In this document: piece by piece, positions 1 through 64,000 of the stretch | Layout of the letters: each line of letters begins with the position of its first letter | Position numbering within the stretch: position 1 is the first letter of the stretch | Translations under genes and position numbers: made by a program | IMG/VR virus record: IMGVR_UViG_3300045988_174698 | Strand: one strand, 5' to 3' | Length of the DNA stretch: 64,000 nucleotides | From: a virus | Notes under the pieces: generated by a model | Told to the model about the DNA's origin: nothing | The model's input: only the letters and a program-made list of their open reading frames with translations | The model's database searches: none

Positions 1-975
1 AATTGAATCAGCTGTGGAATAGGAGTTCTCTATTACTCAGAGAATATAAAAAGTTTTGGAGTAGCTTTATTACAGCTAGTAACTCCAGATAGTGGTAGTG
101 TCGGAAAGGGGAAGTATATAAACGGCGGAGACGTAGATAACTCCAGTTCAACATATACTACTTTAAACACCATTGGAAAAACATGATTTAATAATAATTA
201 TATTGCATCAATATTATTAGCAGTTAGTCTACATATATATTCTCTAAAGAATCTAAAGACTAAAAATGTATATTTGTTAACAGAATCTATATCTAATTTA
301 TCTACTTCTATAAATGATGTTTTTCTAGAATTTAATAGAGAAGATAGAGTTGTTGATATTCAATATAATAGAGTCTCTTTATTAGATGCTAAAATTGATA
401 TTGATTTTGAAGAATCAGGAAAGTACTCTAATGTAAACTTAAAAAATTTAGGAAGAATAACAGACCAAAAAATTGTTAAATCTAATAGTGTAAAAGTTGA
501 AAATATAGAATGATATACTTTAGATAGTATAAACAATATAAACTTTAATTATCAAAGTTTATTTAATTTTATTGACGAGTCAAGAAATAAAATATTAGAA
601 TATAGTAATGTCGACCCAAGTTCATTATTATGTGATTTACCAACCACACGAGATAATCCATTGTATAATTTTGCTCACGCATTAACTGCAATGTTAAAAG
701 TACATAATGCGTCTAGTAACAATAATAATATTTATAATGATATAATTTGCAATAAAGATTTTACTACAGATGATATAGGTGGTGATGTTGCTCCTGCAAT
801 GAGAGATGGAACTATTGGTAACTCTATACTTCCAACTATATCTATAATAAATGAATCGGATAGAATAACTATTTTAGAACCGCCTGAAACAATGGGCAGT
901 AATATTGATTCTTTAATGCAAGTTACTCAGGAATTTAAAGAGACTTACAAGAGTATAACAACAGACATAACATAA
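1..975 (+). CDS. hypothetical virion/structural protein, 5'-partial (open in frame 1 from nt 1; TGA at 511-513 read as Trp; TAA at 973-975)
   Basis: Track ORFs 274..513 and 661..975 share frame 1 and are separated only by TGA. The frame is open back to position 1. Confidence 0.5.
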
Positions 976-3900
976 TGAAATTAAATCTTACGGCAAAAAA
1001 ATTTTATAGTGAGGGAGATATTACTCATGAATATAACCCACTTCATAACAAACTAACAGAAGATGGTAGTCTTCAAGATTTTGTTACTGATGAAATTTCA
1101 TTAGATCTAAATAATCCAGTAAGTATTGAATGCCAACCATCATATGATGGAACTGTTAATCTAATAATTAATGATGATAAAAACCCTCCTAGAATAGTAA
1201 ATACTACTTATACAACAATAGAGGATAATCGCTATAGGAGAATAGTTAGAAATCAAACAGAGCAGACAAATATCTATAGAGAAGGTAAGATAGACACTCA
1301 AACTAGATTATTTAGAAATATAAATAAGATTCCAAAAATAGATCTTGTAAATGTATCTTATTCTGGACAATTAAAAGGAGGTAATTATACTTTTTATATT
1401 AAATTAGCAGATAATGATTACAATAAGACAGATATTGTAGCTGAATCTGGTATGATTTCAATATTTAAAGGATCATTACATGAAATTAACACTATATCAG
1501 GAACATTAGAGGATGAGAGAACAGATAAGTCTATAACTTTGATGTTAACTAACATTGATGTTTCTTTTAATAAGATATTCATTTACTGCAAAAGAGAATA
1601 TTCTGATTTAAATGGAGTAATTAAAGATGAGACATACTTTATTACTAAGCCATGTGAAATTAAAGGCACAAGTCAGACTATAACTATTAATGGGTTCGAG
1701 GAGATTACATCTATAAATGAAGAAGAATTAAACATTAAATATAACATATGTACTGGGGTTAAAACACAAGCTCAGGTTCAAAACATGTTATTTCTAGGAA
1801 ATATACAGCAAACTATATTGGATAATGCAACTCTTCAGAATTTATCATATTATATAAGAGTAAAATTAGTTCAAAGAGAAGATAGTATAGGTTATATTAA
1901 TCCTGGGTCTTATACTAAGATTTCTGAAGATGAAATTACAAAAACAGAGTATTATCATCCTTTAAATATATATTATTATTTAGGATATTGACCATCGGAA
2001 TTATATAGACTTGGAATAGTGTATATTTTTAATGATGACTCATTAAGTCCAGTTTATAACTTGAGAGGATGTGAATTTAGTGATTTGGACACAGTAAATT
2101 ATATAGGTGTATATAATAAGGATGAACATATTTCACAAGATGAATTTTTTATTCCTAATACGGATGGTACAAACTTATCTAATACTAAAGGAGTATTTAA
2201 ACTCCCAGATAAGAGTATCTATAGTAAAGACGGAACAAAAGGAGTACATCCTTTAGGATTTGAATTTACATTCGATTCAGGATTAATTAATGAATTAAGG
2301 AACAATAAAAAACTTAATATAAAAGGATTCTTCTTTGTACGTCAGAAAAGAATTCCAAACATTTTATGTCAAGGATTCTCAATAGGAGTAGACAGAACAT
2401 CTTATATACCATTAATATACGGAGTACAGGATGAAGAGGGGTATACTACAGAATCCTTTATAGATTCTAGCTTAGGTTTAAGTACTGATTATAGTAGTAG
2501 ATTAATTAGTACAGCTAATATACAAAGTAGTGGATTATTAAGTGTTGACACTATAGTAAACTATCAATTACAATCTATGTTTGATAATTCTGAGTTTATT
2601 GTAGAAAAAGCATATGAAACCATGAATAGTGAAGATAAGTTATCAACGTCATTATCTAATAAACGTCATTACTATATAAATACTATTAAAGAATCCGCAG
2701 ATAAAAAGTATGCAACTAAGGCCAAATGTGTATATATAGATACTGATATACCATTAAAATATTATGATAGCTATGGATTTTCAACCAGAGTAGGATCATC
2801 AGAGGACTGTAAAGATGTTAGGTTTTTAGGTTCAAAAAATTATGAACAAAATAATAATAAAATAGTAAGAGGAATCTATTGTCCTTTTATTGGAACTAAT
2901 AAAGTTTTAGATCCAAGTTGTATCTATAATATAAAATCTGGAAATTATTCTTCTACATTTATGAGTGAGTATTTTAAGATCAGAGGTAATGATCTCTCTC
3001 CATTTATGGCAATTAGTCCCAGATACGAATTGAATGATAGTAAGTTACAGTCTCGTTACGATTTATATAAGAGGACACAAGATAAAGTTGAGTTGATTGA
3101 AGAGAATGTACTAACTATTGATAAAAATAAATATGTTAATACATCTACGGAGGAATACTATTTAGAAGAAGTAAAATTCACTCCAACTGTATTTAGAGGG
3201 GATTGTTTTACAAATACAGTAACAGTTAGAATTATAAGGAATTTTATAGATTCTGAAACTCCAACTAATGATATAATAGTTGATCCAGAAACTTGGAAAA
3301 ATGGGTATAAAGGATATAATCAAACTACTACCTCTGATTGAAAAGAGATTAACAGAGCAGATGTGAATACTGTACCTCTTGGAATGTGAGTTACTTATAA
3401 ATGTCTTTCAAATTATAATTTAGGGCTACGATCTGAGGATACATCTTATGTTGATGAAATGGCATTAATGGGAAATCCAAGAGGCTTCTATCCTTTACAT
3501 GGTATAAATACAGCTCCGTCAAGTAAAATACCCGAAAGTACTCTATTAAACGCAGGATATTCTACAACAGTACCTTCTAAAAAATACTTTACATCCCCTG
3601 ATGTACCTTATGTAAAGGATGTATTTGATACTAGAATTATGTTTAGTAATGTACAAGTAGAGGATGACTTTAGAAATGCATATAGAATATTTCAAGGGTT
3701 AGATTATAAAGATATAGAAAGACAATATGGGGCTATTGTAAAACTAATATCTTATGGAACTAACTTATTCTGTGTCTTTGAACATGGATGCGCCTTAATT
3801 CCTATTAATGAAAAAGCACTTATAGCTACTACTACAGGTCAATCTATACACATGTATGGTGCAGGAGTTTTACAAAATCAAGTTACTCCTATTTCTCAAG

Positions 3901-5723
3901 ATTATGGAAGTATTTGACAAGAATCAATTATTAGAACACCAAATGCAATTTATGGGGTTGATACTTACGCTAAAAAAATCTGGAAATACAATGCAGAAGG
4001 ATTTAGGCTAATATCTGATATGGTAGTTCAGAGATTCTTGAATGATAATATAATATTAAATGAAGAGGATAAGTATCCTATAGTAGCATTAAAGAATGTA
4101 AAGACTCACTACAATAACTATAAAGGTGATGTAATGTTTACATTCTATAATGGAAATAAGGTATGAGATTTATGCTATAACGAACGTCTAGAGAAGTGAA
4201 TCACTAAATATAGTTGAACTCCTTTATCTTCAGCCAATGTTAATAACATTTTCTTAACTTTGGATCGTCAGAGAGCTTCATTATATGGAATTATATATGA
4301 TAATATTAACACAAATTCAGGAGCTCATATTGAGGAAAGATTCGAAGAAAACGAGGTTGATAAATTAAATAATGAAAAAGAGAGTTTAGAGAAGGGAAAT
4401 TTACCAGAGAATTCTACTAGAATAGAAGAAATTGATAGAAGGATTGAATATATTGATAAAAACTTTATTTCTGGAAGAACCTGTGGTAATCTATGAGAAT
4501 ATGATAATATCAAGAGAACTATAGTTATTAAAGGCTATGATTTCTTTGAGAAATTTGGAATAAGAATAACATCTATTACATCATCTATTTTAGATACAAA
4601 TGGAGTTGAGCATATAGTTGAGTTCACAGATTCTCCAAAAACAGAATATGATATTAAATGTAAAATTATTAATGGATCTTACAAACCAGATGGTTCAGAA
4701 TCTGAAATAGAATATTCTCAATACTTAGTTGGAGATATAGATCCAGAAAGACTTCAGAAAAAAATTGGTATAATCCAAAATGGAAGGAACTTGGAATTAA
4801 CTATAAATGATTTTGAAGAAGTTTCAAAATTATTATATTTAAAAATTGATTTTGAAGTAACTCCAAAAATAGTTTCTACATATATAGATAATTCTGAGAA
4901 TATTTCAAGTCAAACTAATGAAAATAAAGTATCATCTTCTAGTAATTCATTTAAGGAATCTATAGTATTAATTAGAGACTATAACTATTTAGTTCAGTCT
5001 AAGATGGAGGATAAAGTTAAAGAATATGATCTACTACTTAAGAATGGATTCTATATGCATGGTAGAGCGGGTGTATTTGATGAAATAAATTATTTCGATC
5101 AAAATCCAAATAATGAGATACATCCAACTAAATGATATGACAAACAAGAACCATTTGAGTTTGAGTTTGTAGTAAATAATCCAGCAGGAATTCATAAGGT
5201 ATTTGATAATTTAGTCTTAATATCTAATAATGTAGAGCCAAATAGTTTAGAATTTGAATTAGTTGGTGATGTTTATGATTTTAATAAAGCTGGGATTTAT
5301 CAATCAGAACATGTAGATAAGGAATCTTATTGAAATCCTGATGGATCTTTTGATGAAGATAAATATAACAATGATAAACATTCTAAAGAATTTAGTGGGA
5401 CTGAATATAGCCAAGAATTTAGTGATAATATATCTATTGATAGAGATCCTGTGTTAAATCAATATTTTATCAAGGTAGATCAACCTGTTCTTAATATTAA
5501 GAGAGTAGGAAGGCGTTTAGGAAATATTGAATATAAGGAAGATAGGTGATATAATACTATTACTCCAATTCACTATAAAATTAAACGTAAAGACGGAGTA
5601 AAATCTGACTTAAAGTCTACTAGAATTAGAGACAAGTGATTAAAAATTAGAATTAAGTATACTGGCGATAAACTAGTAGTTATAAATGCAATCCAAACAT
5701 TATTAAGATTAAGTTATGCTTAA
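975..5723 (+). CDS. giant structural protein (~1580 aa), function unknown (tail or receptor-binding candidate)
   Basis: Track ORFs 975..1991, 2019..3341, 3459..3917, 4260..4496 and 4791..5135 are all in frame 0 and separated only by TGA. The first non-TGA stop is TAA at 5721-5723. Confidence 0.6.
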
Positions 5724-7068
5724 ATATAATTTGAATAACTGGGTTTCCCTTTCTAATGCTGCTTTTGGTGGCAACGGAAAGGGAACTGGTAAAATAACTA
5801 TACCAAATGCTATAGGGACTCAAAGTATAGTTAAAAAATCAGATTTAGGTCCTGTTATCAGTGAATCTAAATTAATATCTGCAACTAAATCTCTAAATAA
5901 AGTTGCACCAGTAAAAGAGGATAAAGCTTTAAATAAAAAGATACAAACAGAAGTTAATAATAAACTCTCAAAATCAGCTAACAAACCGTCTTTTGGGCAG
6001 AAATTATCTATGCTTGATGCAGAACATGGAGAAACATTTAATGCAATAGGATCTGCAATTAGTGGGATTAATGCATCATTAATAGGAGATGAAAAAACTG
6101 GTAAGGGGGCTGAGACAGCTCATAGTATAACTAACACCGTTAATTCATTAATTCCTAGTAGTGGTATAGGAAGTATGGCAAATGCTGCTGGAGGAATGAT
6201 TGGAAACCTAATAGGAGGCACTAAAGATAGAGTTCATGGTACTGGATCTGCAGTTGTTGGCACAGTTTCTAAAGTGGCAAGTAATTTTGGTCCAGTTGGT
6301 ATGGCTGTTGGCGCCGCTTTAAATTTATTAAATGGCATTGGAGGTAAGAGAGTAGATTCATTAGCTGACATGACTGACCAATTTGGGTCAGGTTATGGAG
6401 GTTCACAATCAGATGTTTCGGAATCTATTAGTAAGTACTCAGGGAAAAAGGCTGGATTGTTTGATTTTGGATTTGCCAAAAAAGGAAATAAAGCAATACA
6501 AGAAGCTAGAAAAACTCAAAATACAATATTGGGTATTATGGATGAGGCTAAACTAAGAAAATCAAACTCTGCAGCGGATACTTATTTATCTCAAAATCAA
6601 AATAGATATGCAGGATATGAGCCTAAACTATTATTGTCTAAGAGAGGTATGAAATTTCCTGAATTAGATCGTGCTAGAGAAATCATTAGTTCCTGATCAA
6701 CCAAATCTACAGAAAATCAAGATACTCAGAAATTTCAACTTGGAGGTAAAATGAACCTAATTCCAGAGGGAGCTTTACATGCTAGAAAACACAATTTAGA
6801 GGAAGTAAATCCAGAATTAGAAGGGCAAATTACAAAAAAAGGTATTCCAGTAATAACTCATTCAGAAGGAGGAGTTACTCAAACTGCGGAGATTGAAAAG
6901 AATGAATGAACTCTTAGAAAAGAATTTACCGATCAACTAGAATCTTTGTATAGTCAATATCAGGAGGATCCTTCAGATGATATAGTTATAGAAGCAGGTA
7001 AACTAGTTTGTTTTGAGTTGTTAAAGAATACAGATGATAGGAGTGGTTTAATTAAAAGTATAAAGTAA
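5716..7068 (+). CDS. Gly/Ala-rich virion protein (internal-core or tape-measure-like)
   Basis: Frame 1 with TGA at 6694 and 6907; TAA at 7066. Repetitive G/A/S-rich segments (GSAISGINASLIG, GIGSMANAAGGMIGNLIGG). Confidence 0.55.
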
Positions 7069-7069
7069 T

Positions 7070-7963
7070 ATGCCATTGGATATAAGATCACAAGTTGTTA
7101 CAGCTCTGGATAATATTAATAGAAATCCAGAGCTGTATACTCCTACAAAACCAACTATACCTTTAGAAGCAAGAATTAATGATCTAAAAGAAACTAATCC
7201 TAACAAATATAGAGAATATATTTCTACATTAACATCTTCTGCAAATAGTGGAAATGAAGAAGCCAGAGAGTTGTTAGGAAAGATAGGAGAGGATGCTGCT
7301 AGGCAGAGAAGAGGGTATGAAGGATTAAACGAATTTATGGCAGCTTCAACTGGAGGATTACCTGGAATAATTGCAAATTACTTACCTAAAATAATAGGAA
7401 GTGCTTGAAATGGATATAGTATGTTTGATCCAGATAGTCCTGGCCTATTTACTAAAAATTACCAAGAAACACACCCTAAAACTACACTTGGCCTAAATAT
7501 AGCATTAGGGGCCATAGCTGGATATCCATTTATAGTTAAACAAAAGCCTTTAAAAAGTGATATTCCAATCAATGCTACTATAAATACTAATAAGCCAATA
7601 TTTTATCCAAAACTTCATTTTGTAAAAAATAGTCAACATAATAATATCACTTATTTTGATATATTTGCTGGGAAAAATAATAATATTGGTAAAGTTGCTT
7701 TAGAAACTATAGGAAATAATCAGGCACATATTCATCCTGAGTTGAGTCGTAATTTGAGAGGAAAAGGATTTGGAAAAGCTACATATTTAAATATGCAACA
7801 AAAGTATCCAAATTTACAAATTCGCTCATATTTACAGAATGCTGGAGAACAAGGAATCAGTGAAGCTGCTAAACGTGTTTGAAAATCCTTAGTTCAAGAT
7901 GGAGCAGCCTATTCTATTGGGGATAATTATTTATTTAAACCTAATTTATGAAAGAAACAATAA
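7070..7963 (+). CDS. protein with C-terminal GNAT acetyltransferase-like motif
   Basis: ORFs 7070..7408 and 7421..7882 joined through TGA (7406, 7880); TAA at 7961. 'RNLRGKGFGKATYL' fits the R-x-x-G-x-G/A acetyl-CoA-binding motif A of GNAT enzymes. Confidence 0.45.
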
Positions 7964-8565
7964 TTGAAATAGCAGATAAGAAATATAAGGTCTTAGTTGC
8001 AGAAACTGAAGAAGAAAAAACCCAAGGACTTTCTAATGTAGAGTCTATGGAGGATTCAGAGGGTATGTTGTTTAATTACTCTAGTAATCCACAAGGTTCT
8101 CTAGTATTTAATACTAAAGATATGGATTTTCCTATTGATATTATCTTTATAAATGATGATGATGAAGTAGTTGCAGTAGAATATGGGGAACCTAAATCAG
8201 ATGAAGTTATAGAGTGTATTACAGATCCTGATGAAAAATTAGTATATGTTCTTGAAGTTAATGCTAATTCTGGAATTCAAATAGGAGATGAATTAGACTT
8301 TGAGGATGATGATATTTCTGATGAAGAGGTAGAAAAGATGTATATATTAGGATCAGATGGCAAGCCTCAAATGGATCTAGTTGGTGGTGAGCGGATTATA
8401 TCAATTAAAGAAACTAAATCATTAATTAGTAAAGCGAAACGTGCCAATAAATCTAAGAAGGATTCTGACTACAAGAAATTAGGAAAATATATATTCAAAA
8501 TATTAAAAAAACAAGATGAAAGAAAACCAGAATATGTTTTGGGTCCTAATAAAAAAGGAGAGTAG
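7948..8565 (+). CDS. acidic DUF192-like protein
   Basis: Uninterrupted ORF. 'FNTKDMDFPIDIIFINDDDEVV' resembles the DUF192/COG1430 core. Acidic C-terminal half. Confidence 0.45.
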   Translation: MKETIIEIADKKYKVLVAETEEEKTQGLSNVESMEDSEGMLFNYSSNPQGSLVFNTKDMDFPIDIIFINDDDEVVAVEYGEPKSDEVIECITDPDEKLVYVLEVNANSGIQIGDELDFEDDDISDEEVEKMYILGSDGKPQMDLVGGERIISIKETKSLISKAKRANKSKKDSDYKKLGKYIFKILKKQDERKPEYVLGPNKKGE

Positions 8566-8581
8566 AATAATTCTACTCTCC
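8557..8581 (+). terminator. perfect hairpin ggagagtagaa-taa-ttctactctcc overlapping the stop codon of the 7948 gene; no U-tract
   Basis: 11-bp inverted repeat read directly from the sequence. It is followed by a 300-bp AT-rich non-coding stretch. Confidence 0.4.
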
Positions 8582-8878
8582 ATAAGAAGATACTAACTAT
8601 CCTCTTTAACCCTATATTATCTAATGTTTAATCTAGCATCTCCTTAGAGAATGAAATAGACTCTATTTTATATTCTTGGGTTGTGTTACAAAGATAATAA
8701 TATATATTTAATATGTCAAACAATTTATACAAAATTTATCACAGAAGTAATTTTTATAGAATTTATTTGGATATTAAAAACTAAAGTATTATCTTTGAGC
8801 ATTAAATGAATATATGATAATGAAAGAGTTAACTAGAAGAATTTATAAAATTATTAATTAAATAAAGTAAATATTTAT

Positions 8879-9163
8879 ATGAAGGTAATTAAATTTATGC
8901 AGGAAGGTGGTAGTGCTCCTGCACCTGCTGCACAACAGCCAGCAGCAGCACAGCAAGATCCACTTGTAGAAATTGCTAATATGATGGCTCAAGGATTACA
9001 GTCAGGTGACTGTAATATGCTAGCACAGGCTTGTGAGGCATTCCTTTCGTTACTTTCACAGGCACAAGCTCCTGCACAAGAACCAATAGGAGCTCCTGTT
9101 GATTCGGAGCCTGTTTTCAAGAAGGGTGGTAAGCTTGTAAAACGCAAGAAATGTCGTAAGTAG
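8879..9163 (+). CDS. small (94 aa) protein, Ala/Gln-rich with basic C-terminus; isolated between two hairpins
   Basis: Standard-code ORF ending in TAG. Its N-terminus MKVIKFMQEGG resembles the N-termini of the next two genes. Confidence 0.55.
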   Translation: MKVIKFMQEGGSAPAPAAQQPAAAQQDPLVEIANMMAQGLQSGDCNMLAQACEAFLSLLSQAQAPAQEPIGAPVDSEPVFKKGGKLVKRKKCRK

Positions 9164-9176
9164 ATCATTGAAAGAT

Positions 9177-9211
9177 AAAAGGGGGATTGTAGATGATCAA
9201 TTCCCCTTTTT
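9177..9211 (+). terminator. rho-independent terminator (13-bp stem aaaagggggattg/caattcccctttt plus U-run)
   Basis: GC-rich stem, 8-nt loop and a T-run immediately after the 8879 gene. Confidence 0.7.
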
Positions 9212-9234
9212 AAGTATAATATAAGTGTGATAGA

Positions 9235-13572: not shown

Positions 13573-13573
13573 T

Positions 13574-15451: not shown

Positions 15452-15453
15452 TT

Positions 15454-47673: not shown

Positions 47674-47684
47674 TTTATTATATA

Positions 47685-51115: not shown

Positions 51116-51390
51116 TAAAACAAACTGCTAATCATCACACTTAAATATAACAAGTTATCTTGTAAAGCTATATTATTAAGCTCACATAGATTGTTATATA
51201 TCTTTATATAAAGTTTACAAATATTTAACATTTTCCTATTAATTTTAACCAATCTTCCTCTACAAAGTAAGACATTCAACCATATTGATCTAATCAACTC
51301 TCTTCATTAATAAGACAGGCATGTTCATTAAAGTCAGGATGTTCCATTAACTCCTGAGTATACGGTCATTCTACAATTACATATTTCACA

Positions 51391-52593: not shown

Positions 52594-52777
52594 ATCTCTA
52601 TATCTAATATAACCTTCTTCAACAGTTCAGGTGTTTAAAATAGTAAGTATTTGTTCGTTTGTTAACATATTATTCATATATCTATAGTACTTTATTAAGT
52701 TCTTCGGCTCCATATTAAGAATACTACTAACTTAAGTTTATAAGCTTCAATTTTACCAGGATCCATTAACATCTTTA

Positions 52778-53686: not shown

Positions 53687-54032
53687 CTACACATTTTTTA
53701 AAATCTAAAAACATCTTATTCTCCGAATGATTTTCAAGTAATTCATCTAATGATGATGCTACATCTGAAACTAATTCAGAATTAGGGTCAGAAAGGTAAT
53801 CATATAGCTCATTAAATGTAGAGAACTTGTTTTTATCTGAACCTATAGCATACAACCATATTAACTCAGAGTTGTATTCTCCAAAGTATAGTTCCAATAA
53901 AATACATACAGTACCACAAGCTAGTTGTTTTATTTCTATTAAATCTTTAGAGCACTTAGAATCTACAAACCGTGTTTTTTGAATGCATACTATTATAGCT
54001 AACAAATCTTCTCTGTTTAATTTATGTTTCAT
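53670..54032 (-). CDS. hypothetical protein (120 aa)
   Basis: Track ORF. Confidence 0.4.
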   Translation of the reverse strand: MKHKLNREDLLAIIVCIQKTRFVDSKCSKDLIEIKQLACGTVCILLELYFGEYNSELIWLYAIGSDKNKFSTFNELYDYLSDPNSELVSDVASSLDELLENHSENKMFLDFKKCVDEIPS

Positions 54033-54192
54033 TATATATCAATTTTATATTTTAAAGTCTTCATAATAAGTAGTTAGGAATAGGCTTATCTGCGGCAGTA
54101 TAATTAAAATATTTAATTATTACTAGCTTTATATCTGATTTCGTCCTTGCAGTATCTCTTAAATAAATTAGTATTAAGTATTATCATCCTTT

Positions 54193-55562
54193 TGATATAT
54201 AATTAAATCACTTGTAGTACGACTACAGGCTACATATTGTAACTGCCGAAGTTCTTCTTTATTTGTACATCTCCAGATATTCTCCATATCTATCATTACA
54301 ATAGAATATTGAGATGACTGTGATTTATGAGTTGATATACAATATCCATAATCTAGTGATTTACGTTTAATTATCCTATTATCGTATCTTATATCAAAAG
54401 TAGTTAAAAATGATTCTGATAAATCATAATATTTACGCCATAAAGCATTAACTCTTTTTTTATATACATTATTCTTATCAGCATTAACCGTAGATAACCT
54501 AAGTCATTCTAACCTATAAGCTAGATTATTAATATTTTTTTCTGAATTATCTTTAGATAATACTATTACTTTAAAAGTAGAATCATCTGATTTTAACCCT
54601 AATTCCCAAGCATTTAATTCTAAATACTTAGTTTTATTTACTGATGTTATAATATAATCACGAGAATTTTCTATTTTTAATCCTAAATAGTTAGTTGTGT
54701 CATAACCTGTTAGAACTTCTCCAACAACAAATTCTTCTTTATATCCTAAATATTCTCTAATTAATTTATTTAATGCTTTAATTCTATTATTAGTATAAGA
54801 AACTAATTTTATTAAATTAGAATCACTAAAATCTTTAGATATTTTAAATAAATAACTATACTTTTTAAGCATTTGTACAATATTGTTACATACTGTAATA
54901 TTAGAATAATCATCAGAAATGCTTTTAAATTTATATAATGGCTTTTCTCTTAAATAATTTAATACTTTAGATAAACAACTTTCTTTTTGTCTATATATCT
55001 TATTTAGATAAATTGTTCTATTACTAAATGCTTTAGAAGGTTTATTTTCTTTTACAGAATAAAGCTGTTTAGGATCTCCTACAAATACTATCTTTGATGA
55101 CTTATATTCTTTTAATAGTAAATCATATAGATCACTATTAATCATACTACACTCATCTACAATAAGAACATCATATTTATACACTTGATGTGATCTTTTG
55201 AAAGAAGTATCTAAAAATTTAAATTCTAATTGTGAAGCATCAAAATTTAATACATTTAAATTAGGTCTAAGATTTAGTAGAGAATGTATTGTTAAAGCTT
55301 CTCTTCCTTTCATTCCTTTTGATTCTAATACTAATTTTGCCTTATTTGTTGGAGCAATAAAAGCAGTCCAGTATCCGTTATCAGCTAATATGTCATATAA
55401 CATACTAGCAATCATACTTTTAGAAGTTCCCGCTGACCCAGTTAAACAAATGCAGTGTTCATCACTAGTTATAAAAGAAGTCAAATCGGATAATGCTTTT
55501 CTTTGAGCATCGTCCAATCTGACTTTGTATTCTTTTTCTAATTTATTTATATCATAATTCAT
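54193..55562 (-). CDS. Dda/RecD-like SF1B DNA helicase (~456 aa)
   Basis: Walker A LTGSAGTSKS, Walker B VLIVDECSM and motif III VFVGDPKQL. After an in-frame TGA at 54504, motif VI CISTHKSQSSQYSIV and YVACSRT. Confidence 0.75.
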
Positions 55563-56077
55563 TACTTACCTGTTGATCCAAATCCACCACGAGAATAGGA
55601 ATCTAAATTATCAACCCATTCAAACTTGATTTTAGAAGTAAATAACCACTTAATTTTTTGCCAAATAGTAGCCTTCTGACTTAGTTGAATTCTAAATTGA
55701 CAAATACGATCTCCCTTTTTAATAACAGTACGTTCTAAAGAAATTGCAGGAAATTTCCATTCATCATCATTTCCAGAGTAAGTATTATCGATAATTCCAA
55801 GGGAATTAGATTGAACTATTTTAAAATTCTTAAATGTACTGCTTCGAGGTACTATATGAGCCTCAAATCCTTTTGGAAGAATCATAGCAAATCCGAGTCG
55901 TATAAGACAACTATCAAACGACACATCTCTAAATCGCTTACCATTTAACTCATATTGTACCCCAGCTTGCGGTGCTACAAGTTCTATATCTTCGGCTGCA
56001 TGGAGATCAATCCAATCTCCTTTTTCAATAATTTCAAATTTACTCCCTTCAATAATTTCTTTAACTTTAATCCTCAT
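55562..56077 (-). CDS. dut: dUTP pyrophosphatase (trimeric dUTPase)
   Basis: All five dUTPase motifs: GDWIDLHAAED, IVPRSS, GIIDNTYSGND, GDRICQF and C-terminal RGGFGSTGK. Confidence 0.85.
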   Translation of the reverse strand: MRIKVKEIIEGSKFEIIEKGDWIDLHAAEDIELVAPQAGVQYELNGKRFRDVSFDSCLIRLGFAMILPKGFEAHIVPRSSTFKNFKIVQSNSLGIIDNTYSGNDDEWKFPAISLERTVIKKGDRICQFRIQLSQKATIWQKIKWLFTSKIKFEWVDNLDSYSRGGFGSTGK

Positions 56078-56438
56078 ATATATGTTTATTTAAATATTTA
56101 TTTACAACGGATAGTATTTCATGTAACGTATCCCACTCATCATCATTCAAATCAAGATATCTATCAGATACAAATTCTGCTATATAATCATCATTATATT
56201 CGTTATATCTGAAAATTAATATAGTATAACAATTTTCCTTTGACTTAAAACAGCTTTTGTGTACTCTGACAGAATGAGTTCCGTCTAAATAAAATTCACC
56301 TTGTTTTTCAAAATTTGACTCAGTGCCATAATAACTATTCGGATAATACTTTACAATTTCAAATGAAATATATTTAGGTAATTCTCCAATATATGTACAT
56401 GGTTTGAATTCTAAATTTTTTATTCTATATGTTTCCAT
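56067..56438 (-). CDS. hypothetical protein (123 aa)
   Basis: Track ORF. Confidence 0.4.
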   Translation of the reverse strand: METYRIKNLEFKPCTYIGELPKYISFEIVKYYPNSYYGTESNFEKQGEFYLDGTHSVRVHKSCFKSKENCYTILIFRYNEYNDDYIAEFVSDRYLDLNDDEWDTLHEILSVVNKYLNKHIYED

Positions 56439-56474
56439 ACTTATATCTTAAATAAAATATTAGTTACAACGACT

Positions 56475-57902
56475 TCAGCCGCAGGACATACAGCTTACAC
56501 ATCCTGAAGTAGCAACCAATGGTTCCCCACATTCTGGACATACGTTTTTATTATCATGATTGGCATTTATTGAAGGTTTTGTATCTGGAACACTAATCTG
56601 CTCTTTTTGAGGAATTTTTACATTATCTTTTATAGCTTCTGTAATTACTCTTGATATAATATCTGGGCATGACAAACCATCAATATTAATTTTTCTAGCC
56701 TTACATGTACTACAAGCAGGACAATTAATTCCTCTTATCTGATCAATTATCTCATCGACTTTAACACCACTTCTAAGATTAAGAGAAATTAATCTTGTTA
56801 CAGCATTCATGTTAGCTTGACAGATACCACCTTTAGATGTATGTGTGAACACTTCTACAAGATTACCCTTATTATCCTTATTGCAAGTTATATATAATGT
56901 TCCACATGCACATTTTTTACAAAAAGTTGCACCATGTGTTGTACCAAGTGTTTTGCGTGAAACTGGTGCAATGGAATCAAATTTGAAAGATTGTTTTTCT
57001 TCTTCAACTTTAATAGATTCCCCCATAATAGCTGGTCTACTATTTTCCCTAAATATCGTTAACCCTTTTAAACCAGCTTTCCATCCAGCTAAATATAATT
57101 TTTCTACATATTCTTGTGATGTATCTTTCTTAAGATTAATTGTAGAACTTATTGCTGTATCAATATACTTTTGTAATGCTGCTTGAAGCTTTATACGATC
57201 ATATGAATCAATATCATATGCTGTTACAAGAATATCATCATCTATAGAAGAATTAGGAACAGAATCAAGATATTCTTTTACAATTTTAGCATAAACATCA
57301 TATACCTTTTCTTCTTTATTAAGAGATACTGTTTTTCTCTGAAATTTCTTCATAAACAGGGGTTCCAAACCGCCCGATACTCCAAGCATAGTTGAAATTG
57401 ACCCAGTTGGTGCTATCGAAAGTAGTGAACAGTTTCTAAGACCAAATTTTTTCATTTTTTCAAGTTCATCGCTTGAAAAGGCTTCTTTCATTATACTAGA
57501 TTCAAATACCTTGTCTGAATAGCCAGGAAATGTTCCAAGTTCTTTAGCAAGATCATATGAGGTAAATACAGAATTTCTGAAAATAAGTCTCATAATATTT
57601 TCTGCAAGTTTTATCGACTCTAGGCTTCCATATTTAATATTCAATTTTATAAACATATCATGAAGTCCCATAATTCCTATGCCAAGGTTTCGGTATTTAG
57701 CAATTTGTTCTTGTTGTTCCTTAAGAGGGTGGTTATGAAGATTTTCATCTATAATCCTATCCATTTCCCTAACAATAATCTTTATATCTGAAACTAGTTC
57801 AGAATAATTAACTGTTGCAAATTTTGTAAAAGGATCTTTTACATATTCAGATAGATTTATTGAGGATAAGTTACAGGACATATTTTTTGGCAAAGGTTGT
57901 TC
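56475..57902 (-). CDS. ribonucleotide reductase catalytic subunit (class II NrdJ-like, monomeric), exon 2 (from EQPL...CNLSSINL to a C-terminal Zn-ribbon)
   Basis: CNLSSINL, SLLSIAPTGSISTMLGVSGGLEP, GLKGLTIFR and C-terminal CPECG...CVSCMSC. No NrdB-like gene nearby. Total length 739 aa. Confidence 0.8.
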   Translation of the reverse strand, partial: EQPLPKNMSCNLSSINLSEYVKDPFTKFATVNYSELVSDIKIIVREMDRIIDENLHNHPLKEQQEQIAKYRNLGIGIMGLHDMFIKLNIKYGSLESIKLAENIMRLIFRNSVFTSYDLAKELGTFPGYSDKVFESSIMKEAFSSDELEKMKKFGLRNCSLLSIAPTGSISTMLGVSGGLEPLFMKKFQRKTVSLNKEEKVYDVYAKIVKEYLDSVPNSSIDDDILVTAYDIDSYDRIKLQAALQKYIDTAISSTINLKKDTSQEYVEKLYLAGWKAGLKGLTIFRENSRPAIMGESIKVEEEKQSFKFDSIAPVSRKTLGTTHGATFCKKCACGTLYITCNKDNKGNLVEVFTHTSKGGICQANMNAVTRLISLNLRSGVKVDEIIDQIRGINCPACSTCKARKINIDGLSCPDIISRVITEAIKDNVKIPQKEQISVPDTKPSINANHDNKNVCPECGEPLVATSGCVSCMSCG

Positions 57903-58208
57903 CTATATATTACCTATTTAGCTTTTTATCTAGATATTCTGGAAGTTTCCTTCATACTCTTTATTGCCATTAGAGATACGTCTGTCAATTCAGACCAGTT
58001 TAGCATATATTTTCACTATAAAGTGTTGGGCACTCTTGGTGGAATTATATTTATTCATCCACTATGCGTTACAATGTTTCATAGCCTATTCGTAATCTAT
58101 GAAATTATCTCGGTATTATCATGCAATAATTTGTTTAGACTTCACCGATTTTACCCAATTTTTTACATGAGGCAAACAATACAACTAACTGATAACCAGC
58201 CATTTACT
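57903..58208 (-). mobile_element. intervening sequence (306 nt, probable ORF-less self-splicing intron) within the RNR active-site loop
   Basis: Exon 1 ends ...NPCG at a U (GGU|). Exon 2 starts after a G with GAA CAA CCU UUG = EQPL, rebuilding the universal NPCGEQPL...CNL motif. The insert contains stop codons in all frames. Confidence 0.65.
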
Positions 58209-59000
58209 ACCACATGGATTACTAGTATCTATTTGATACTCAGTAATATACTCCATCAAATTATAATTTCTGAATCTATTCATAAACATGACTCCAGGCT
58301 CTGCATGTTCATATGCATTTTTCATCATAAGTTTATAAATTTCAATTGGAGTTATATCATAATCAGGATATCCCTTAAACTTAGATTTAATATGAAGGGT
58401 TATAACTTCTCCTGTCTCATAAAACTTATCTACGGCATTCATAAAGTTATCATCAACTTCCACAGAAAGGTTTGCATTATTGATCTTTCCAAGATTGCTT
58501 TTAATAGTTATGAAATCTTTTATTTGTGGATGATCTGCTGAAAGAGACATCATTAATGCGCCTTTACGTGATCCACCCTGAGAAACAGAAGCAGTTACAG
58601 TATTAAATATCTCCATAAATGGAACAATACCATCTGTTTCATATCCTGAAGAAAGTTTTGATCCTTTTGGACGAATATCAGATAAAGATAATCCTTGACC
58701 TCCCTGAGCTTTGAACGTTAATCCTATATTTTTTGCCGTTTGAAGAATATCATCAAGATTATCTGCAATTTTACCAGACGAGTAGCAATTTGAGTACGAA
58801 GCCTGTCTGTCTGTTTGTCTGTTTGATAGAGTTCTTCCTCCAAATAAGAACTTTTTAGCAACAATTAACTTTCTTAGTTCTTCATTTCCACCACTAACTC
58901 TATCAAACCACTCGTCTAAAGACTCATTATTATATCTATACTTTTTATTTCAAATATCAATTCCTAATTGATCATTATTAAGCCATTCTTCAACAGTCAT
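58209..59000 (-). CDS. ribonucleotide reductase, exon 1 (264 aa; GGSRKGALM and NPCG motifs)
   Basis: Track ORF 58185..58616 extended in frame upstream to ATG 58998-59000. Sequence ...YETDGIVPFMEIFNTVTASVSQGGSRKGA... matches the RNR consensus. Confidence 0.8.
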
Positions 59001-59023
59001 ATATTATATACTTAATTAATAAT

Positions 59024-59596
59024 TTATTCAAACTCTCTATTTTTTCTTTTACTTATTCTCACATCTGCTTCATCTACTCCAAACACAATATACTGACCTA
59101 ATTGAGTTCGTACTGAAGGAGTATATTCCATCTCAAAATCAATATCACTAGAATAGTACACTGTTTTCCCATATATATTCTCTTGACACTTCTTTATTAG
59201 TTCTTTTGATAACTCTATTGCTTCTGTTTTATTACTAGCAGTTCCTAAGAGTTGATTATCTTTTTGAGTTCGAATTTCTATAACCCGCTTAAGTTTACAA
59301 CGACCTTTTCTACGGACACTGTTAATTTTAAAAGGATTTTTTCTAGTATCTTCAACTCCAGAAGTAACGGTAATAATTATACCTGCTCCTTTAAAATCAA
59401 ACATACCCTTTTCCTCTAAAAAATCTGCGGCGTATATATTTAAGTCTTTCGTAAGTATAGGAGAGCCTGCTTTCTTCCAATTTTTTGTAGCATCTTGTAC
59501 TACGGTAATACCTGCTTGAAAAGCTATAAGTTTTGCCTCCTCTAAGGAGTGAGCTTGAATTTCTATCTTCTGCATACTAAACAAATATAATATCAT
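59024..59596 (-). CDS. hypothetical protein (190 aa)
   Basis: Track ORF. Confidence 0.45.
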   Translation of the reverse strand: MILYLFSMQKIEIQAHSLEEAKLIAFQAGITVVQDATKNWKKAGSPILTKDLNIYAADFLEEKGMFDFKGAGIIITVTSGVEDTRKNPFKINSVRRKGRCKLKRVIEIRTQKDNQLLGTASNKTEAIELSKELIKKCQENIYGKTVYYSSDIDFEMEYTPSVRTQLGQYIVFGVDEADVRISKRKNREFE

Positions 59597-60617
59597 CGGA
59601 ATAATAATTCATCTCACAATATGCAACCATCTTAAGAAGTTTACAAAATTCTTTACGCCCTTGTTCTAGTACCTCCTTGTTAATTGGGTATACTCCAACA
59701 CTATTAGTAGATGTAGTTTCAACAACAATAACATTACATTTTACAGTTCATTCTTCTGAATTGTATCCATACTTTTTTTCACAATATCTAAGTAGAACTC
59801 AAATATAATATGCGAATTGTCTTGAATAAGAAAATATTTCAAATGATCCACCAGGTTCCATAAATTGATATAATAAATGACCTGTTGTTTTTAAATCATT
59901 TAAGGTGATAATTTTATTTTCAAGATCAATTGTTCAATTATCAGCTTTCATTTTAAGCTTAAGAGTATGTTGATTACCATTATAAGATGCGTTTATATCA
60001 ATAAAGAATGCTTCCTCATTATATGTTTCAATAGCATCTCCAAAGATATCAGTAGGATATAATAGATTATTTACTTGTCTATTAGAATTAAGATTATTAA
60101 TACACTTTTCTACTGTATCTCGATCCTTAGATGATAGAATAATAGTATTATTATCTGTTATAAGTTTAAGATTATAGTAATATCTAAACCCATCTTTAAT
60201 AATACTTTTTATTCTAGAAGGGGTTAAGCTTAATTCATAATAATGTATCTTTCCACAAGCTTCTACTATGGCACTATATATAGGTAGATTCTTTTTTCGT
60301 AGCTTAAATATTTCATCAATTACCAGTCCTAACTTAGCTGAGGGTTTACCTATGTCTGGGCCTAAAGTAAAGACATCTTTCTGGAGTAGTAGTTCATGGA
60401 TTGCACTGCCAATACTTAATGATATTGTGGTTTCTCCAGTAAATCCTTCTTTATATTTGCTTGGAGACCCATTTTGATTAGGATTAATCAACTTTAAACG
60501 AGAATTTGATATATAGTTGGTATATTTACTTGAAAAATATTCCTCATCAGACATTTTCTCACGACGGACACTTTCTAAATTAGGAGATAGTTTTATATCA
60601 TTTAAATTAACTGTCAT
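59577..60617 (-). CDS. putative PD-(D/E)xK-family nuclease/exonuclease (~346 aa)
   Basis: Track ORF 59934..60617 continued through three TGAs to TAG ~59577. Candidate motifs GSAIHELLLQ ... IDINASY ... LNDLKTTG (D/E-x-K). Confidence 0.4.
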
Positions 60618-60706
60618 AATGTTTTATAAAGTGGTACTTATTATTAGAAATACCCATAAGAACTTTGTTAGCTTCTTCTACTTTATATTGTGAAACTAAA
60701 TTATAT

Positions 60707-60952
60707 TTAACTTTCAAGTTTCCTTTTTGGTCTATCATCTTCTATCTTTGTATCTCCTGTTTTATTCATATTAACTAAAGCAGTTAAAAATAGCTCGCAT
60801 AGTCTCGCAGAAAGACCTAAATTTGCTTTTAAATCTGTGATTTTTGGTTCAAAGGAAGGTTTATAGTCCAAGTTTCCTTTATCGTCTAGACTAAAATCTA
60901 GAACGATTTTCTGTCCTGTGCTGTGAATAAATTCTACTTTACAAGTTTCCAT
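60707..60952 (-). CDS. hypothetical protein (81 aa)
   Basis: Track ORF. Confidence 0.4.
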   Translation of the reverse strand: METCKVEFIHSTGQKIVLDFSLDDKGNLDYKPSFEPKITDLKANLGLSARLCELFLTALVNMNKTGDTKIEDDRPKRKLES

Positions 60953-61358
60953 ATTTCTTAATTAATTCATAAAAAAAATCTTTCGGTATCATAACCACTT
61001 CTCCAACTGACCTAAATGTAGACTCTGTTGGTTTAATTTTTTTTCAAAAGATAACAAATGGTTTATCTTTAAAAGGACATGAGTTTAAAATTCCAAAATA
61101 ATCTGGAGTATTAATAGTTGCTTTTAACTGAGGATTAAAAAATAGTTTATTTTCAACATCAACTAAATCAACCTTTCTATCATCCATACTTTTACTTTCT
61201 GATCTAGAGGTAACAACACCTGTAAAACCAAGGTCTCGTAACTCTTTTGCTATCTGTACCTCATAAGCATTTCCTCTAGCTCTATTCCTCTTTAAATTTC
61301 TTGATTTCTTCTCTTTCCCCCTCTGATTTTCCTTTAATATATTCTTTTGCGCTTTCAA
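60939..61358 (-). CDS. Hjc-like Holliday-junction resolvase (PD-(D/E)xK), ~139 aa
   Basis: RGNAYEVQIAKELRDLGFTGVVTSRSESKSMDDRKVDLVDVEN resembles the archaeal Hjc core KGSxxERELVxxLxxxGFAVVRAxxSG...D(I/L)(I/V)A. Extended through TGA at 61044. Confidence 0.5.
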
Positions 61359-62319
61359 TTAGACTAACAGTTTTATCATGTTTATATTTGGCATAAAAGT
61401 CAGATATATCTTTAGCTTTATATTCTCAAGGTATTCATATTGGAATAACTTCAGGGAATTTCTTTTTAATAGATATCATTGCTCTCAATCCTGGACGATC
61501 ATTATCATATAATAAGATTATATGTTTAAATCTTTCTTTAAGACGATGATATTGAGCCTCAGATAAGAAACAATTTTCTGATATTGGGGCTATTGCGGGA
61601 ATTCCTAAATTATACAATGTCATTACATCTTTTAATGACTTAGTAACAACAAGATATTCTCCCATTTTTGGTAACATGTGAGATCCTTGTAGTCTTAGTG
61701 ATTTTCAATTAGATATAAATTTATATTTTCTATTATTAGGGAAATAAATCCGTCAACGTTCAATATCTTCTCTTATACCTCCATAATATCCAAATACTAA
61801 TTGTTTATCTTTAAACAAATGAAACAAATTATTATTAAGGAATACATTTTTACAAGAAAATACCTTGAACTTGTTTAGTGTTCGCAAATCAATACCAAAC
61901 TTAGCCCATCAATCTAACTCATATTGTTCGAAATCTTTTATTTCAACTTGAATAATAGCATCAGTAGTATCTTCAAGTTTTGTATTAGAATACTTAATCT
62001 CCTGCGGTATATTATTTTGTCTGGGAATTAAACCTATATCACTTGCAACTATGTTTAATGCCTTATAATACCCACAGCCATATTTATTCATAACCACATA
62101 TACTCAATCTCCGCAATAATTACTTCCAAAGTCTTTTATAATAATCCTACCCATGCGATTTTTATAATATGCTACAGTAGGTTTTGAATCGTTTCTTACT
62201 TTAGACCTAAAAAGACCCTTTTTTACAGGTTGCCCATAATAAGTATACATTAATGTTTCTTGAGAAACCTTAGATTCAATTAAATCTCTAGTTATAACAG
62301 CAGGAAACTTGTATTCCAT
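61276..62319 (-). CDS. DnaG-like DNA primase with TOPRIM domain (~347 aa)
   Basis: Track ORFs 62104..62319, 61909..62097 and 61435..61677 plus intervening pieces are in frame and joined by TGA. TOPRIM motif HIILLYDNDRPG. The Zn-finger region is degenerate. Confidence 0.7.
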
Positions 62320-62438
62320 ATCTTACCTCTTTATACATAAGTTTACGATTATTTATAATATAATGTACAAGCATACTTCTTTCAGTAACGAAGAAGATAT
62401 GCTTGTACATGCGTCATATAACTATAACTTATTTATTA

Positions 62439-63101
62439 TTAGAAAGGCAGATCACTGTCGTCATTGTTCATACTATCTTCTTGAGGAGAAAAGTCTTCAC
62501 GCAGATCATCAAGTTCATTATTACGTTGGCGCATATCAGTAGGCTTTGCATTTGCTGCACTGTCAATAGCTGTTTTTTCTTTTGCGGTTAATACAAGATC
62601 ATGACCAATTATTTTTGTAGTCATATAAATTGCGTTATCCTTACTGAGACGTGCTACAAACCCAGGAAAACCTACAAAGTTCCCAGTAGTTGGCACAAGC
62701 TTAATTTGTGTCTGAGTTCCAACTTTCTTATCAAGATATTTCTTAAGAAGAGCAATGAAGGAGTCAAAATCTGGAGCAGCAAACTTATCTCCATCTGCTT
62801 CAATCTTATGTGCAAGTTCAGGATCAAGAGCATCAATTACTTGCTTGATTTTACACATAAACTGCTCAGATTCAGATGGATTTGTACCATATTGACTTTG
62901 GGTTCTTTCTTCTGAGCGGGGTTCGAAAATTCGTTCATTGTGAATACCACTACCATCTACTGCCTCAAAACGAAGTTCAATTGCATTAAATCCATCCGCT
63001 TTATCAATTCCTTTAAAGATTACATTGTGAATTCCAGCACGAAGGAAATTATTAGATACTACCTTAGCGTCCTTGACGCCACCCATATTAAACATACTCA
63101 T
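62439..63101 (-). CDS. putative single-stranded DNA-binding protein (acidic C-terminal tail ...DDSDLPF)
   Basis: The C-terminal D-rich tail ending DLPF resembles the SSB C-terminal peptide (DDDIPF). Confidence 0.5.
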   Translation of the reverse strand: MSMFNMGGVKDAKVVSNNFLRAGIHNVIFKGIDKADGFNAIELRFEAVDGSGIHNERIFEPRSEERTQSQYGTNPSESEQFMCKIKQVIDALDPELAHKIEADGDKFAAPDFDSFIALLKKYLDKKVGTQTQIKLVPTTGNFVGFPGFVARLSKDNAIYMTTKIIGHDLVLTAKEKTAIDSAANAKPTDMRQRNNELDDLREDFSPQEDSMNNDDSDLPF

Positions 63102-63108
63102 ATTATTA

Positions 63109-63564
63109 TTAAATTAAAGTTAATTCATTATTTTCAGTAATTAAACTAAGATCAGCGGGGATGAGGTCTGCCTCGTTAATTGGATCCATTCTAAACATCC
63201 CAGGTTTATACTCCTTAATTTTAAACAACTGACCATATTTAGTTAAGATTGTTTTCTGTGTTCCCTTAAAAGACACAGTATTGTTCTTGCTTACTTTATT
63301 ACCAGCATTTGGATCAGCAAAAGCTTCCGCTTTACCAATTACAGGAATTGTAATTTCATTATTTTTTTGAATATAATTCACAGCAATTCTATCTCCATAT
63401 TTGACTGACATAAGTTCTATTGCTTTAGGGGAGATAATTAGTCTACTATCTTCAACTTCAACAACTGGTAAGTTTATGTTATCATACTTAGGAGGTACAT
63501 CTACTACCTTAACGTTAGTAACAGCCCGTGATTCTATATCAAAATCAAAAGATATTTTTAACAT
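63109..63564 (-). CDS. hypothetical protein (151 aa)
   Basis: Track ORF. Confidence 0.4.
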   Translation of the reverse strand: MLKISFDFDIESRAVTNVKVVDVPPKYDNINLPVVEVEDSRLIISPKAIELMSVKYGDRIAVNYIQKNNEITIPVIGKAEAFADPNAGNKVSKNNTVSFKGTQKTILTKYGQLFKIKEYKPGMFRMDPINEADLIPADLSLITENNELTLI

Positions 63565-63571
63565 AAAATTT

Positions 63572-64000
63572 CTATTTTACAAGAGATGGGTAAATACGTT
63601 CCCAATGTGGTACAAATGTTCCATCTTCTTTACGTTCAGCAATAATAATATCTTTACCAGCTAAATGTTTGCATCGAGACCCAGTTAAGATTTCACCATT
63701 GTTTCCAAAATTAACACATAAATTACCATCTAGATCTCTATGACAGAACCCAATACCATCTGACTTAGCGGAAAGAATTCGTTTTGTTTTTCCAACAAGA
63801 TCAAGATCTTTTACACTACCTTCAAGTCCCTCGTTCAATGATATACCTTTTACATGGCCACATAAGATGATATTTGGAGCACATTTTGATACCATATCAA
63901 TAATCTTTTCTAAGGCTAAGCGCGTCCACATATATCCCTGACCAGAAGGGAGATGAGTTACATCCGTAACATCGGCGTATTTATCACTATACACAGGAGA
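63572..64000 (-). CDS. calcineurin-like metallophosphoesterase (SbcD/Mre11-like nuclease?), C-terminal part; N-terminus lies beyond the window
   Basis: IILCGHVKG fits the GHxH motif of metallophosphoesterases. The frame is still open at 64000. Confidence 0.55.
   Translation of the reverse strand, partial: SPVYSDKYADVTDVTHLPSGQGYMWTRLALEKIIDMVSKCAPNIILCGHVKGISLNEGLEGSVKDLDLVGKTKRILSAKSDGIGFCHRDLDGNLCVNFGNNGEILTGSRCKHLAGKDIIIAERKEDGTFVPHWERIYPSLVK

Follow-up and report, generated by a model that had tools for sequence, protein, structure and literature searches.

The viral DNA studied here, IMG/VR record IMGVR_UViG_3300045988_174698, was analyzed over its whole stretch of 64,000 nucleotides (the window; GC content 29.4%) and carries two gene blocks of opposite orientation, one of virion and transcription genes and one of replication and nucleotide-metabolism genes (Table 1). 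This report concerns two features, namely the use of the codon TGA as a sense codon for Trp in the window and a tRNA gene with anticodon UCA, tRNA(UCA), which lies to its right in near-identical genomes and is split by an intron.

Of the three stop codons, only TGA occurs in frame within the long genes. Stop-to-stop open reading frames (ORFs) reach 641 amino acids if TGA is a stop and 2584 if it is sense, whereas the maximum stays at 641 when TAG or TAA is made sense in its place. Coverage, taken as the union of ATG-to-stop ORFs of at least 100 amino acids across the window, is 53% under code 11 (longest ORF, 633 amino acids), 89% with TGA as sense (2562), 55% with TAG as sense (633), and 62% with TAA as sense (633), against 1.6% for mononucleotide shuffles. 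ORF length and coding density therefore rise only when TGA is freed, in agreement with the original prediction, which had proposed translation table 4 with TGA encoding Trp, and the code-4 ORFs tile this 89% with only small overlaps. Of the 44 gene models, 33 end in TAA, 11 in TAG, and none in TGA, which bears out the claim that these two codons are the terminators. In total, 119 TGA codons are spread across 27 of the 44 models (12 of 14 on the plus strand and 13 of 30 on the minus strand); genes are indeed broken under the standard code, but "nearly every gene" was an overstatement for the minus strand. The two giant genes offered as examples do fall into same-frame pieces, although into more than had been counted: the gene of the 2562-amino acid protein was given nine, and the ORF starting at 23132, given eleven, has 15 (14 TGA, no TAA or TAG) and ends at 28684, not 28672. 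In the former gene, the TGA codons at amino acids 2200, 2502, and 2555 are kept as TGA in relatives. The observation that TGA is sense throughout the window is confirmed. Reading these codons as real stops in pseudogenes, misassemblies, or many short genes would match what a standard-code gene call reports, but TAA and TAG (together 0.062 per position) are absent from frames of up to 2562 codons, for which the chance is ~1e-71, the TGA positions are conserved in independent assemblies, where apart from the rare codons given below they swap only with TGG, and homology continues straight across them. Relatives' codons, the columns of a late protein, and the frame statistics refute this explanation, to which we give practically no credence. 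In practical terms, code 11 loses or fragments ~40% of the coding sequence of the window, and table 4 is needed for gene calls.

Table 1. Coordinates of gene blocks, genes, exons, and introns in the window, and of the split tRNA gene in a near-identical contig.
Feature	Coordinates	Strand	Details
Virion and transcription (late-type) block	1..38161	+	90 TGA, 37 TGG in 12,372 codons
Gene for 2562-amino acid protein	15454..23142	+	14 in-frame TGA = 15 same-frame pieces; TAA/TAG 0
RNA polymerase (RNAP)-like gene, exon 1 (putative)	23132..28663	+	14 in-frame TGA; ends ...EGSDLD, first half of DxDxD
RNAP-like gene, intron 1	28664..29589	+	Group I-like core ~28680-28775; LAGLIDADG ORF 28804-29553
RNAP-like gene, exon 2 (putative)	29590..30198	+	IDKQYILG... 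to ...NSATD; no TGA
I-SceI-type LAGLIDADG homing endonuclease ORF, in intron 2	30291..31238	+	3 TGA
RNAP-like gene, exon 3 (putative)	31497..33761	+	Starts NAKELILKK (start inferred); 2 TGA
1466-amino acid protein gene, transcription block	33761..38161	+	14 TGA; homologues with PF12705 PD-(D/E)XK domain
Replication and nucleotide-metabolism block	38229..64000	-	29 TGA, 60 TGG; no TGA in 17/30 genes
Initiation factor 3 (IF3) homologue, full-length	38229..38735	-	IF3_C 112 bits, IF3_N 37 bits; TGA 0, TGG 0
AAA ATPase gene	40840-43462	-	Apparently split in P-loop (...SLPGIG / KTSLIEQ...)
Family B DNA polymerase (PolB)	48328..50662	-	Exons 50662-49639 and 49253-48328; 4 TGA
PolB intron	49254-49638	-	Junction GCG T/CA CTA restores DIDVASLYPS
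Class II ribonucleotide reductase (RNR) intron	~57903-58208	-	~300 nt, no ORF; splits NPCG/EQPL
Toprim (DnaG-type) primase	61282..62319	-	6 TGA, 1 TGG; most TGA-rich replication gene
tRNA(UCA) gene, split	L018 5841-6543, ~14 kb past window coordinate 64000	- (relative to window)	aragorn -i

The residue encoded by TGA was read from alignments in which TGA was marked X to avoid bias toward any amino acid. Comparison of the spliced PolB with 120 full-length homologues placed Trp in 120 of 120 at each of two TGA columns and in 78 of 120 at a third (the remainder mostly Cys, with 29, and Tyr), the fourth being a mixture of Trp, Tyr, and His. Since code-4 translations of close relatives are evidently among the entries of the protein database, such comparisons could be circular, and we relied on RefSeq DNA and on a protein from a metagenome-assembled genome (MAG) annotated by PGAP. 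The two invariant PolB sites are TGG in the DNA of the RefSeq crAss-like phages cr4_1 and cr125_1, which use the standard code. Across the 14 TGA columns of the 1466-amino acid protein and 59 full-length homologues (826 cells), Trp occurs 450 times, Tyr 74, Phe 57, Leu 57, Ile 39, and Gly 3, the residue profile being the same as at TGG columns, and P0135, the PGAP-annotated standard-code protein of a Bacteroidales MAG, has Trp at 10 of the 14 sites and Tyr or Phe at the other four. For the RNR, a search against the PDB gave an alignment that did not reach its two TGA sites. Both LAGLIDADG motifs that had been put forward as diagnostic are real, with coordinates ~2 nucleotides off: the first (LAY-TGA-FMDDG, 30945-30971, TGA at 30954-30956) aligns to LAYWFMDDG of I-SceI, in an ORF that matches I-SceI chains at E=4e-15, and the second (AI-TGA-IMDDG, TGA at 29161-29163) lies in an ORF for which no PDB match was found.

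At the codon level, 93 window TGA sites were compared with IMG/VR relatives (4 sites lie upstream of the chosen starts). In alignments of at least 90% identity, TGA faces TGA 288 times, TGG 42 times, GGA 5 times (at one site), CGA once, and TAA or TAG never, and window TGG faces TGA 34 times. With TGA counted, and only then, the Trp content is 1.03% in the plus-strand block and 1.22% in the minus-strand block, 1.0-1.2% being normal. An assignment to Gly (code 25), known from Absconditabacteria and Gracilibacteria phages, would accommodate the TGA at 23555-23557 (amino acid 142 of the gene at 23132), which is GGA (Gly) in 5 of 5 aligned relatives and is the sole such site among the 93, as well as one LAGLIDADG TGA that aligns to a Gly of I-SceI, at a position without a conserved motif in that alignment. 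We nevertheless consider it very improbable, given that Gly takes up none of the 480 PolB cells and just 3 of 826 in the late protein, that the main interchange among relatives is between TGA and TGG, and that the tRNA(UCA) described below is Trp-like, with G73 and A1-U72. The tabulation of residues at TGA columns that had been proposed thus gave the expected outcome, Trp dominating in PolB and the late protein and Gly being absent or negligible. TGA is a sense codon decoded as Trp, and Gly, selenocysteine, and a real stop are excluded for practical purposes.

The choice between TGA and TGG differs between the two blocks (Fisher p=4e-8). Five other A/G-ending codon pairs, whose A-ending fraction is 0.78 in both blocks, were taken as a neutral yardstick, against which the TGA fraction of 0.71 in the plus-strand block is neutral (p=0.07), whereas that of 0.33 in the minus-strand block is 2.4-fold depleted (p=1e-19). 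TGA therefore serves as an ordinary Trp codon in virion and transcription genes, whereas replication genes show selection against it but tolerate it. The base 3' of TGA showed no preference that might weaken release factor 2 (RF2) (p=0.26).

A default ARAGORN scan of the window plus 20 kb past either end yielded no tRNA, a scan of the window with introns allowed likewise yielded none, and relatives had none within 10 kb on either side of the window region. Walking rightward, a tRNA with anticodon UCA was found in more distant relatives (57-69% protein identity) and nothing in close ones, but BLAST with the distant relatives' tRNA matched the close relatives in two pieces ~640 nucleotides apart. 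In L018, a locus in contig IMGVR_UViG_3300045988_175444, the tRNA(UCA) gene has a 609-nucleotide intron after gene position 33, that is, after U34, as do 13 other loci. The exons are predicted to join as GCGGUCUU and CAAAACCGU, which would give the anticodon arm GCGGUCUUCAAAACCGU after splicing; over this arm and the junction, the intron-less allele of L033 has the identical sequence. An exact-pattern scan for the junction of intron and 3' exon returned 45 IMG/VR contigs, of which 28 gave the split tRNA in an intron-aware scan and none in a default scan; the split gene is hence present in at least 28 contigs, and default ARAGORN misses it because it is split. The cloverleaf drawn from 10 distinct spliced sequences has 97.3% of its cells paired, with compensatory changes at 8 pairs. 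The L018 tRNA has A1-U72, G2-C71, G3-C70, and discriminator G73, which we take to be the bacterial tRNA-Trp identity pattern and hence to make it Trp-like, and a strong terminator hairpin (10 bp) directly follows the gene. A TAccTTTG motif, 24 nucleotides upstream of the tRNA and resembling the Bacteroidetes -7 element, and a terminator hairpin occupy L018 5810-5817 and 6559-6582. In L046 and L062, from more distant relatives, a cluster of ~20 tRNAs holds a normal tRNA-Trp(CCA) together with a split tRNA(UCA), the intron of 207 nucleotides having no ORF. A search elsewhere in the genome for a suppressor tRNA-Trp(UCA) had been proposed, and a Trp-like tRNA(UCA) was found in near-identical genomes; with it, every test proposed for the table 4 reading (ORF statistics, Trp columns, and tRNA) agrees. 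It would presumably also be carried, in split form, by the genome of the window itself, with an intron of ~530-630 nucleotides, the span observed among close relatives.

Most copies have a long variable arm with a stem of 5-6 bp, including three covarying pairs (GGAG/CUCC, CUGG/CCAG, and CGGGG/CCCCG), and an extra-arm loop of C-U-C-C-A-A-A or a close variant (L018 spliced positions 46-66; L024, L033, L046), which resembles the anticodon loop of tRNA-Trp(CCA). The extra arm may have remained from the origin of the suppressor or may serve tryptophanyl-tRNA synthetase (TrpRS) as a surrogate recognition element. ARAGORN labels the tRNA SeC owing to its UCA anticodon and long extra arm, and this label, with the Cys that 29 of the 120 PolB homologues have at one column, would speak for selenocysteine. 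tRNA-Sec, however, has an 8/5 architecture with a 6-bp D stem, whereas in the present tRNA the acceptor measures 7 bp and the D stem 4 bp and some relatives have 72-nucleotide versions without the extra arm; moreover, the TGA codons, at 119 sites over 27 genes, occupy Trp or aromatic positions and not redox Cys sites, and no SelB or SelA genes were seen. Selenocysteine is accordingly even less credible than Gly.

The intron in the tRNA occurs in at least three forms at one site, all ending in ...GUGGUAAG, namely an ORF-less form (194-360 nucleotides), a form with a PD-(D/E)XK ORF (PF11645, the I-Ssp6803I family; 30.4 bits against a cut-off of 26.1), and a form with an HNH-like ORF. It shows features of group I introns: U precedes the 5' splice site with a U.G pair there, G is the last intron base, the flanking exons can pair as the anticodon stem, and several intron helices covary. 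Full-length comparison with the group I model RF00028 of Rfam scored weakly (15.5-15.6 bits against a threshold of 50). From these features, the intron may splice itself out. The ORFs in the tRNA intron themselves contain TGA. In-frame TGA occurs in every homing endonuclease ORF (28804-29553, 30291-31238, 42066-43259, and those in the L018 and L019 tRNA introns); these enzymes would therefore be made only once the suppressor is active, including those encoded in the suppressor's own intron. The suggestion that splicing elements take part in expression of the recoded genome was relevant inasmuch as the suppressor tRNA gene bears an intron, although that gene lies outside the window.

Among the other genes of the window, the product of 975-5723 (plus strand) matches a virion structural protein in PHROGs, a weak annotation and the only one returned by a PHROGs search with six tail-region proteins. 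The giant gene starting at 23132 is probably RNAP-like, a function taken from Yutin 2021 (PMC7886860); matching by hidden Markov models and structure gave no match to RNAP for this gene. The boundaries of its first intron were placed by the DLD/ID motif, interrupted at 28663/29590, and those of exon 2 by reading-frame continuity and motifs. The core of intron 1 (28680-28775) matches introns of Twort and Bacillus phages by BLAST (81-87% identity), and its LAGLIDADG ORF has 4 TGA. Six TGA sites of exon 1 are mostly TGG in relatives, another is GGA, and both TGA of exon 3 are kept as TGA in 8 relatives. The minus-strand block has annotations for IF3, dNMP kinase, AAA ATPase, DUF2201, ThyX, PolB, helicase, dUTPase, class II RNR, PD-(D/E)XK nuclease, and primase, with Pfam matches for IF3, DNMK, DUF2201, Thy1, AAA_30 helicase, and Toprim primase and PDB matches for RNR. 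The apparent intron of the AAA ATPase gene is ~1.4 kb long (roughly 41923-43339) and holds an ORF with helix-turn-helix and LAGLIDADG domains (42066-43259; 3 TGA), the PolB intron has the textbook group I core strings AAUUGCGGGAA, GCAGCCAAG, UUCACAGACUA, and AAGAUAUAGUC, and the joined RNR aligns unbroken to Thermotoga NrdJ. Counting both introns of the RNAP-like gene and the single ones of PolB, RNR, and AAA ATPase, the 64 kb contain five introns, along with three LAGLIDADG ORFs. A search of the window with Rfam gave no match at the gathering threshold or at E<=0.1, so that its group I introns are seen only through BLAST to Twort-type introns and by eye. The TGA sites of the primase are TGA, TGG, or Phe codons in relatives at 4 of 6 sites, the others being amino acid 206 (TGA or ACA) and amino acid 299 (AGA, TGA, AAA, CGT, or TTA). 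IF3 acts at initiation, and although the gene is real, nothing connects it with decoding, contrary to the proposal that IF3 may form part of recoded expression. It sits at the end of the replication block and is not mentioned in PMC7886860 or PMC12386605.

The nearest annotated DNA is that of PolB genes of crAss-like phages (~74% identity), with no other annotated DNA matching, and tblastn of the 1466-amino acid protein against INPHARED phages gave three distant matches of 24-26% identity, so that there is no annotated close relative to compare. Within IMG/VR, on the other hand, contig IMGVR_UViG_3300045988_175444 is 95-99% identical to the window across overlaps, and complete-looking contigs of relatives are 164-171 kb long. 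Two independent partial contigs, 3300045988_175444 and 3300045988_180998, break off close to one shared position of the genome, which on a circle of ~166 kb falls ~59 kb to the left and 107 kb to the right of the start of the window; a repeat, a genome terminus, or a region that assembles poorly may lie there. The Zeta group of crAss-like phages comprises genomes of 145-192 kb in which TGA encodes Trp or TAG encodes Gln, mostly in late genes, sister lineages having TAG as Gln or the standard code, and in which up to 14 introns per genome, a PolB fragmented with TGA, and an RNAP broken within DxDxD have been described (PMC7886860). TerL, MCP, and portal genes, whose phylogenies serve for placement in the group, are absent from the window. 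Taken together, we put at roughly 85% the probability that the window represents ~64 kb of a Zeta-group genome of ~165-170 kb that reads UGA as Trp in a host most likely of standard code, probably a member of the Bacteroidota. Because TGA-to-Trp recoding and dense introns are already published for the Zeta group, the finding is real but not new; it is a correct rediscovery in a lineage absent from the annotated genomes searched.

Whether the phage is itself recoded or shares the code of a code-4 host (Mycoplasmatales, Entomoplasmatales) had been left undecided. The latter would bring the same assignment as in code-4 Mollicutes and would fit the low GC content and the absence of a tRNA within the window, and a published table predicts Firmicutes genera as hosts for some opal-recoded (TGA-recoded) Zeta phages. 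The depletion of TGA in one block, with none in 17 of its 30 genes, however, argues against uniform decoding by the host, and near-identical genomes have their own tRNA(UCA), sister Zeta lineages use the standard code or TAG as Gln, Bacteroidota are the hosts of the order, and a 52% identical homologue is found in a Bacteroidales MAG. Shine-Dalgarno-like motifs occur at 3 of 37 starts, against a background of 10.6%, a lack seen also in Bacteroidota; the Bacteroidetes promoter motif, TAnnTTTG, is uninformative given how often it occurs in the AT-rich window. A code-4 host is thus unlikely, and a recoded phage is favored.

As a recoded phage, it would carry its own tRNA, derived from tRNA-Trp with anticodon UCA, which host TrpRS would probably charge and which would compete with host RF2 at UGA. 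The gene of this tRNA would lie in the early-oriented replication region, and the replication genes may avoid TGA because they are translated before much suppressor accumulates, while virion and transcription genes use it freely, so that the skew between blocks would reflect expression timing. With a mobile group I-type intron, which encodes a homing endonuclease, inserted after U34 of the tRNA gene, the suppressor would form only after splicing. Several points weigh against this account. The window does not contain the tRNA, whose presence in the window's own genome is extrapolated from a near-identical contig; splicing, charging, and decoding are predicted steps. Replication genes, including the primase and PolB, do contain TGA, which contradicts a strict early/late code switch. 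Searches of the window turned up no gene for a release factor or TrpRS that would explain how competition with RF2 is handled. No Rfam group I match reaches the gathering score for the tRNA intron, and the core of the L018 intron alone gave none, so that it is "group I-type" and not proven. Finally, the evidence on host identity is indirect.

The split suppressor is a new lead, whereas TGA recoding itself was already known for the phage group. Surveys report a suppressor in ~35-40% of recoded phages and ascribe the gap to undetectable or host tRNAs (PMC7886860; 10.1101/2021.08.26.457843); for code-4 phages, Borges et al. give a share of only 35% with a TGA suppressor (10.1101/2021.08.26.457843), and the crAss papers, in which tRNAscan-SE was used, list some recoded genomes without a detectable suppressor and do not mention tRNA introns (PMC7886860, PMC12386605). 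According to a 2014 review, every phage group I intron known at that time interrupted a protein-coding gene, even though phage tRNA genes were numerous. Our limited search of the literature found no report of an intron-split phage suppressor tRNA, which is absence of evidence and not proof of novelty. On balance, we lean toward the view that the opal suppressor tRNA-Trp(UCA) of this lineage is a split gene, with a mobile group I-type intron after U34 in at least three forms, two of them with different TGA-containing endonucleases, that this is the first group I intron in a phage tRNA among the reports found, that it explains the missing suppressors at least for this clade, that the extra arm could be a relic or a TrpRS element, and that splicing may delay or control the code switch. 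If true, the split gene would answer for one clade the question of recoded phages without a detectable suppressor, and an intron-aware tRNA scan would be a cheap re-analysis for all other recoded phages. If the suppressor must be spliced, intron activity would be tied to the timing of the code switch, and splicing could add a delay or control point during infection.

Among known systems, the opal-recoded Zeta phages (PMC7886860; Lera, ct1yV3, and c815351 in PMC12386605) are the most similar. The contigs of the relatives found here fall inside the size range of that group, and the phage shares with it TGA as Trp mostly in virion and late genes, an intron-split PolB with TGA, a putative RNAP gene broken in DxDxD, many homing endonucleases, and an origin in human gut samples. 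Unlike the named phages, this lineage has 29% GC and a PolB, its 1466-amino acid protein is at best ~24-26% identical to INPHARED entries, and, whereas several opal-recoded Zeta genomes appear in the published table with "no suppressor tRNA," here the suppressor is intron-split and has an extra arm. The Agate and Jade phages (Borges et al., 10.1101/2021.08.26.457843) likewise use code 4 in standard-code hosts at low GC, concentrate TGA in structural and lysis genes and spare replication genes, have intron homing endonuclease ORFs that are themselves recoded, and have a suppressor tRNA(UCA) detected in only 35% of genomes. They are separate lineages, however, Jade phages have TrpRS and RF1, neither seen in the window, and in the replication genes of the window TGA is depleted but still present. 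In Mycoplasma and Spiroplasma, code 4 rests on the same reassignment via tRNA-Trp(UCA), but there the code is cellular and genome-wide and RF2 is lost, whereas the phage has a virus-borne tRNA, a cell presumably keeping RF2, and uneven usage along the genome. Lastly, bacterial tRNA group I introns, those of cyanobacterial tRNA-Leu(UAA) and of the tRNA-fMet with I-Ssp6803I, also lie in the anticodon loop; the intron described here follows position 34 as in tRNA-Leu(UAA), with the same U before and G at its end, and its endonuclease ORF belongs to the I-Ssp6803I family PF11645, like the enzyme of the tRNA-fMet intron. It differs from those introns in that its group I membership is a sub-threshold Rfam match, in that ORF-less, PD-(D/E)XK, and HNH-like forms share one site, and in that its host gene is a phage-encoded nonsense suppressor.

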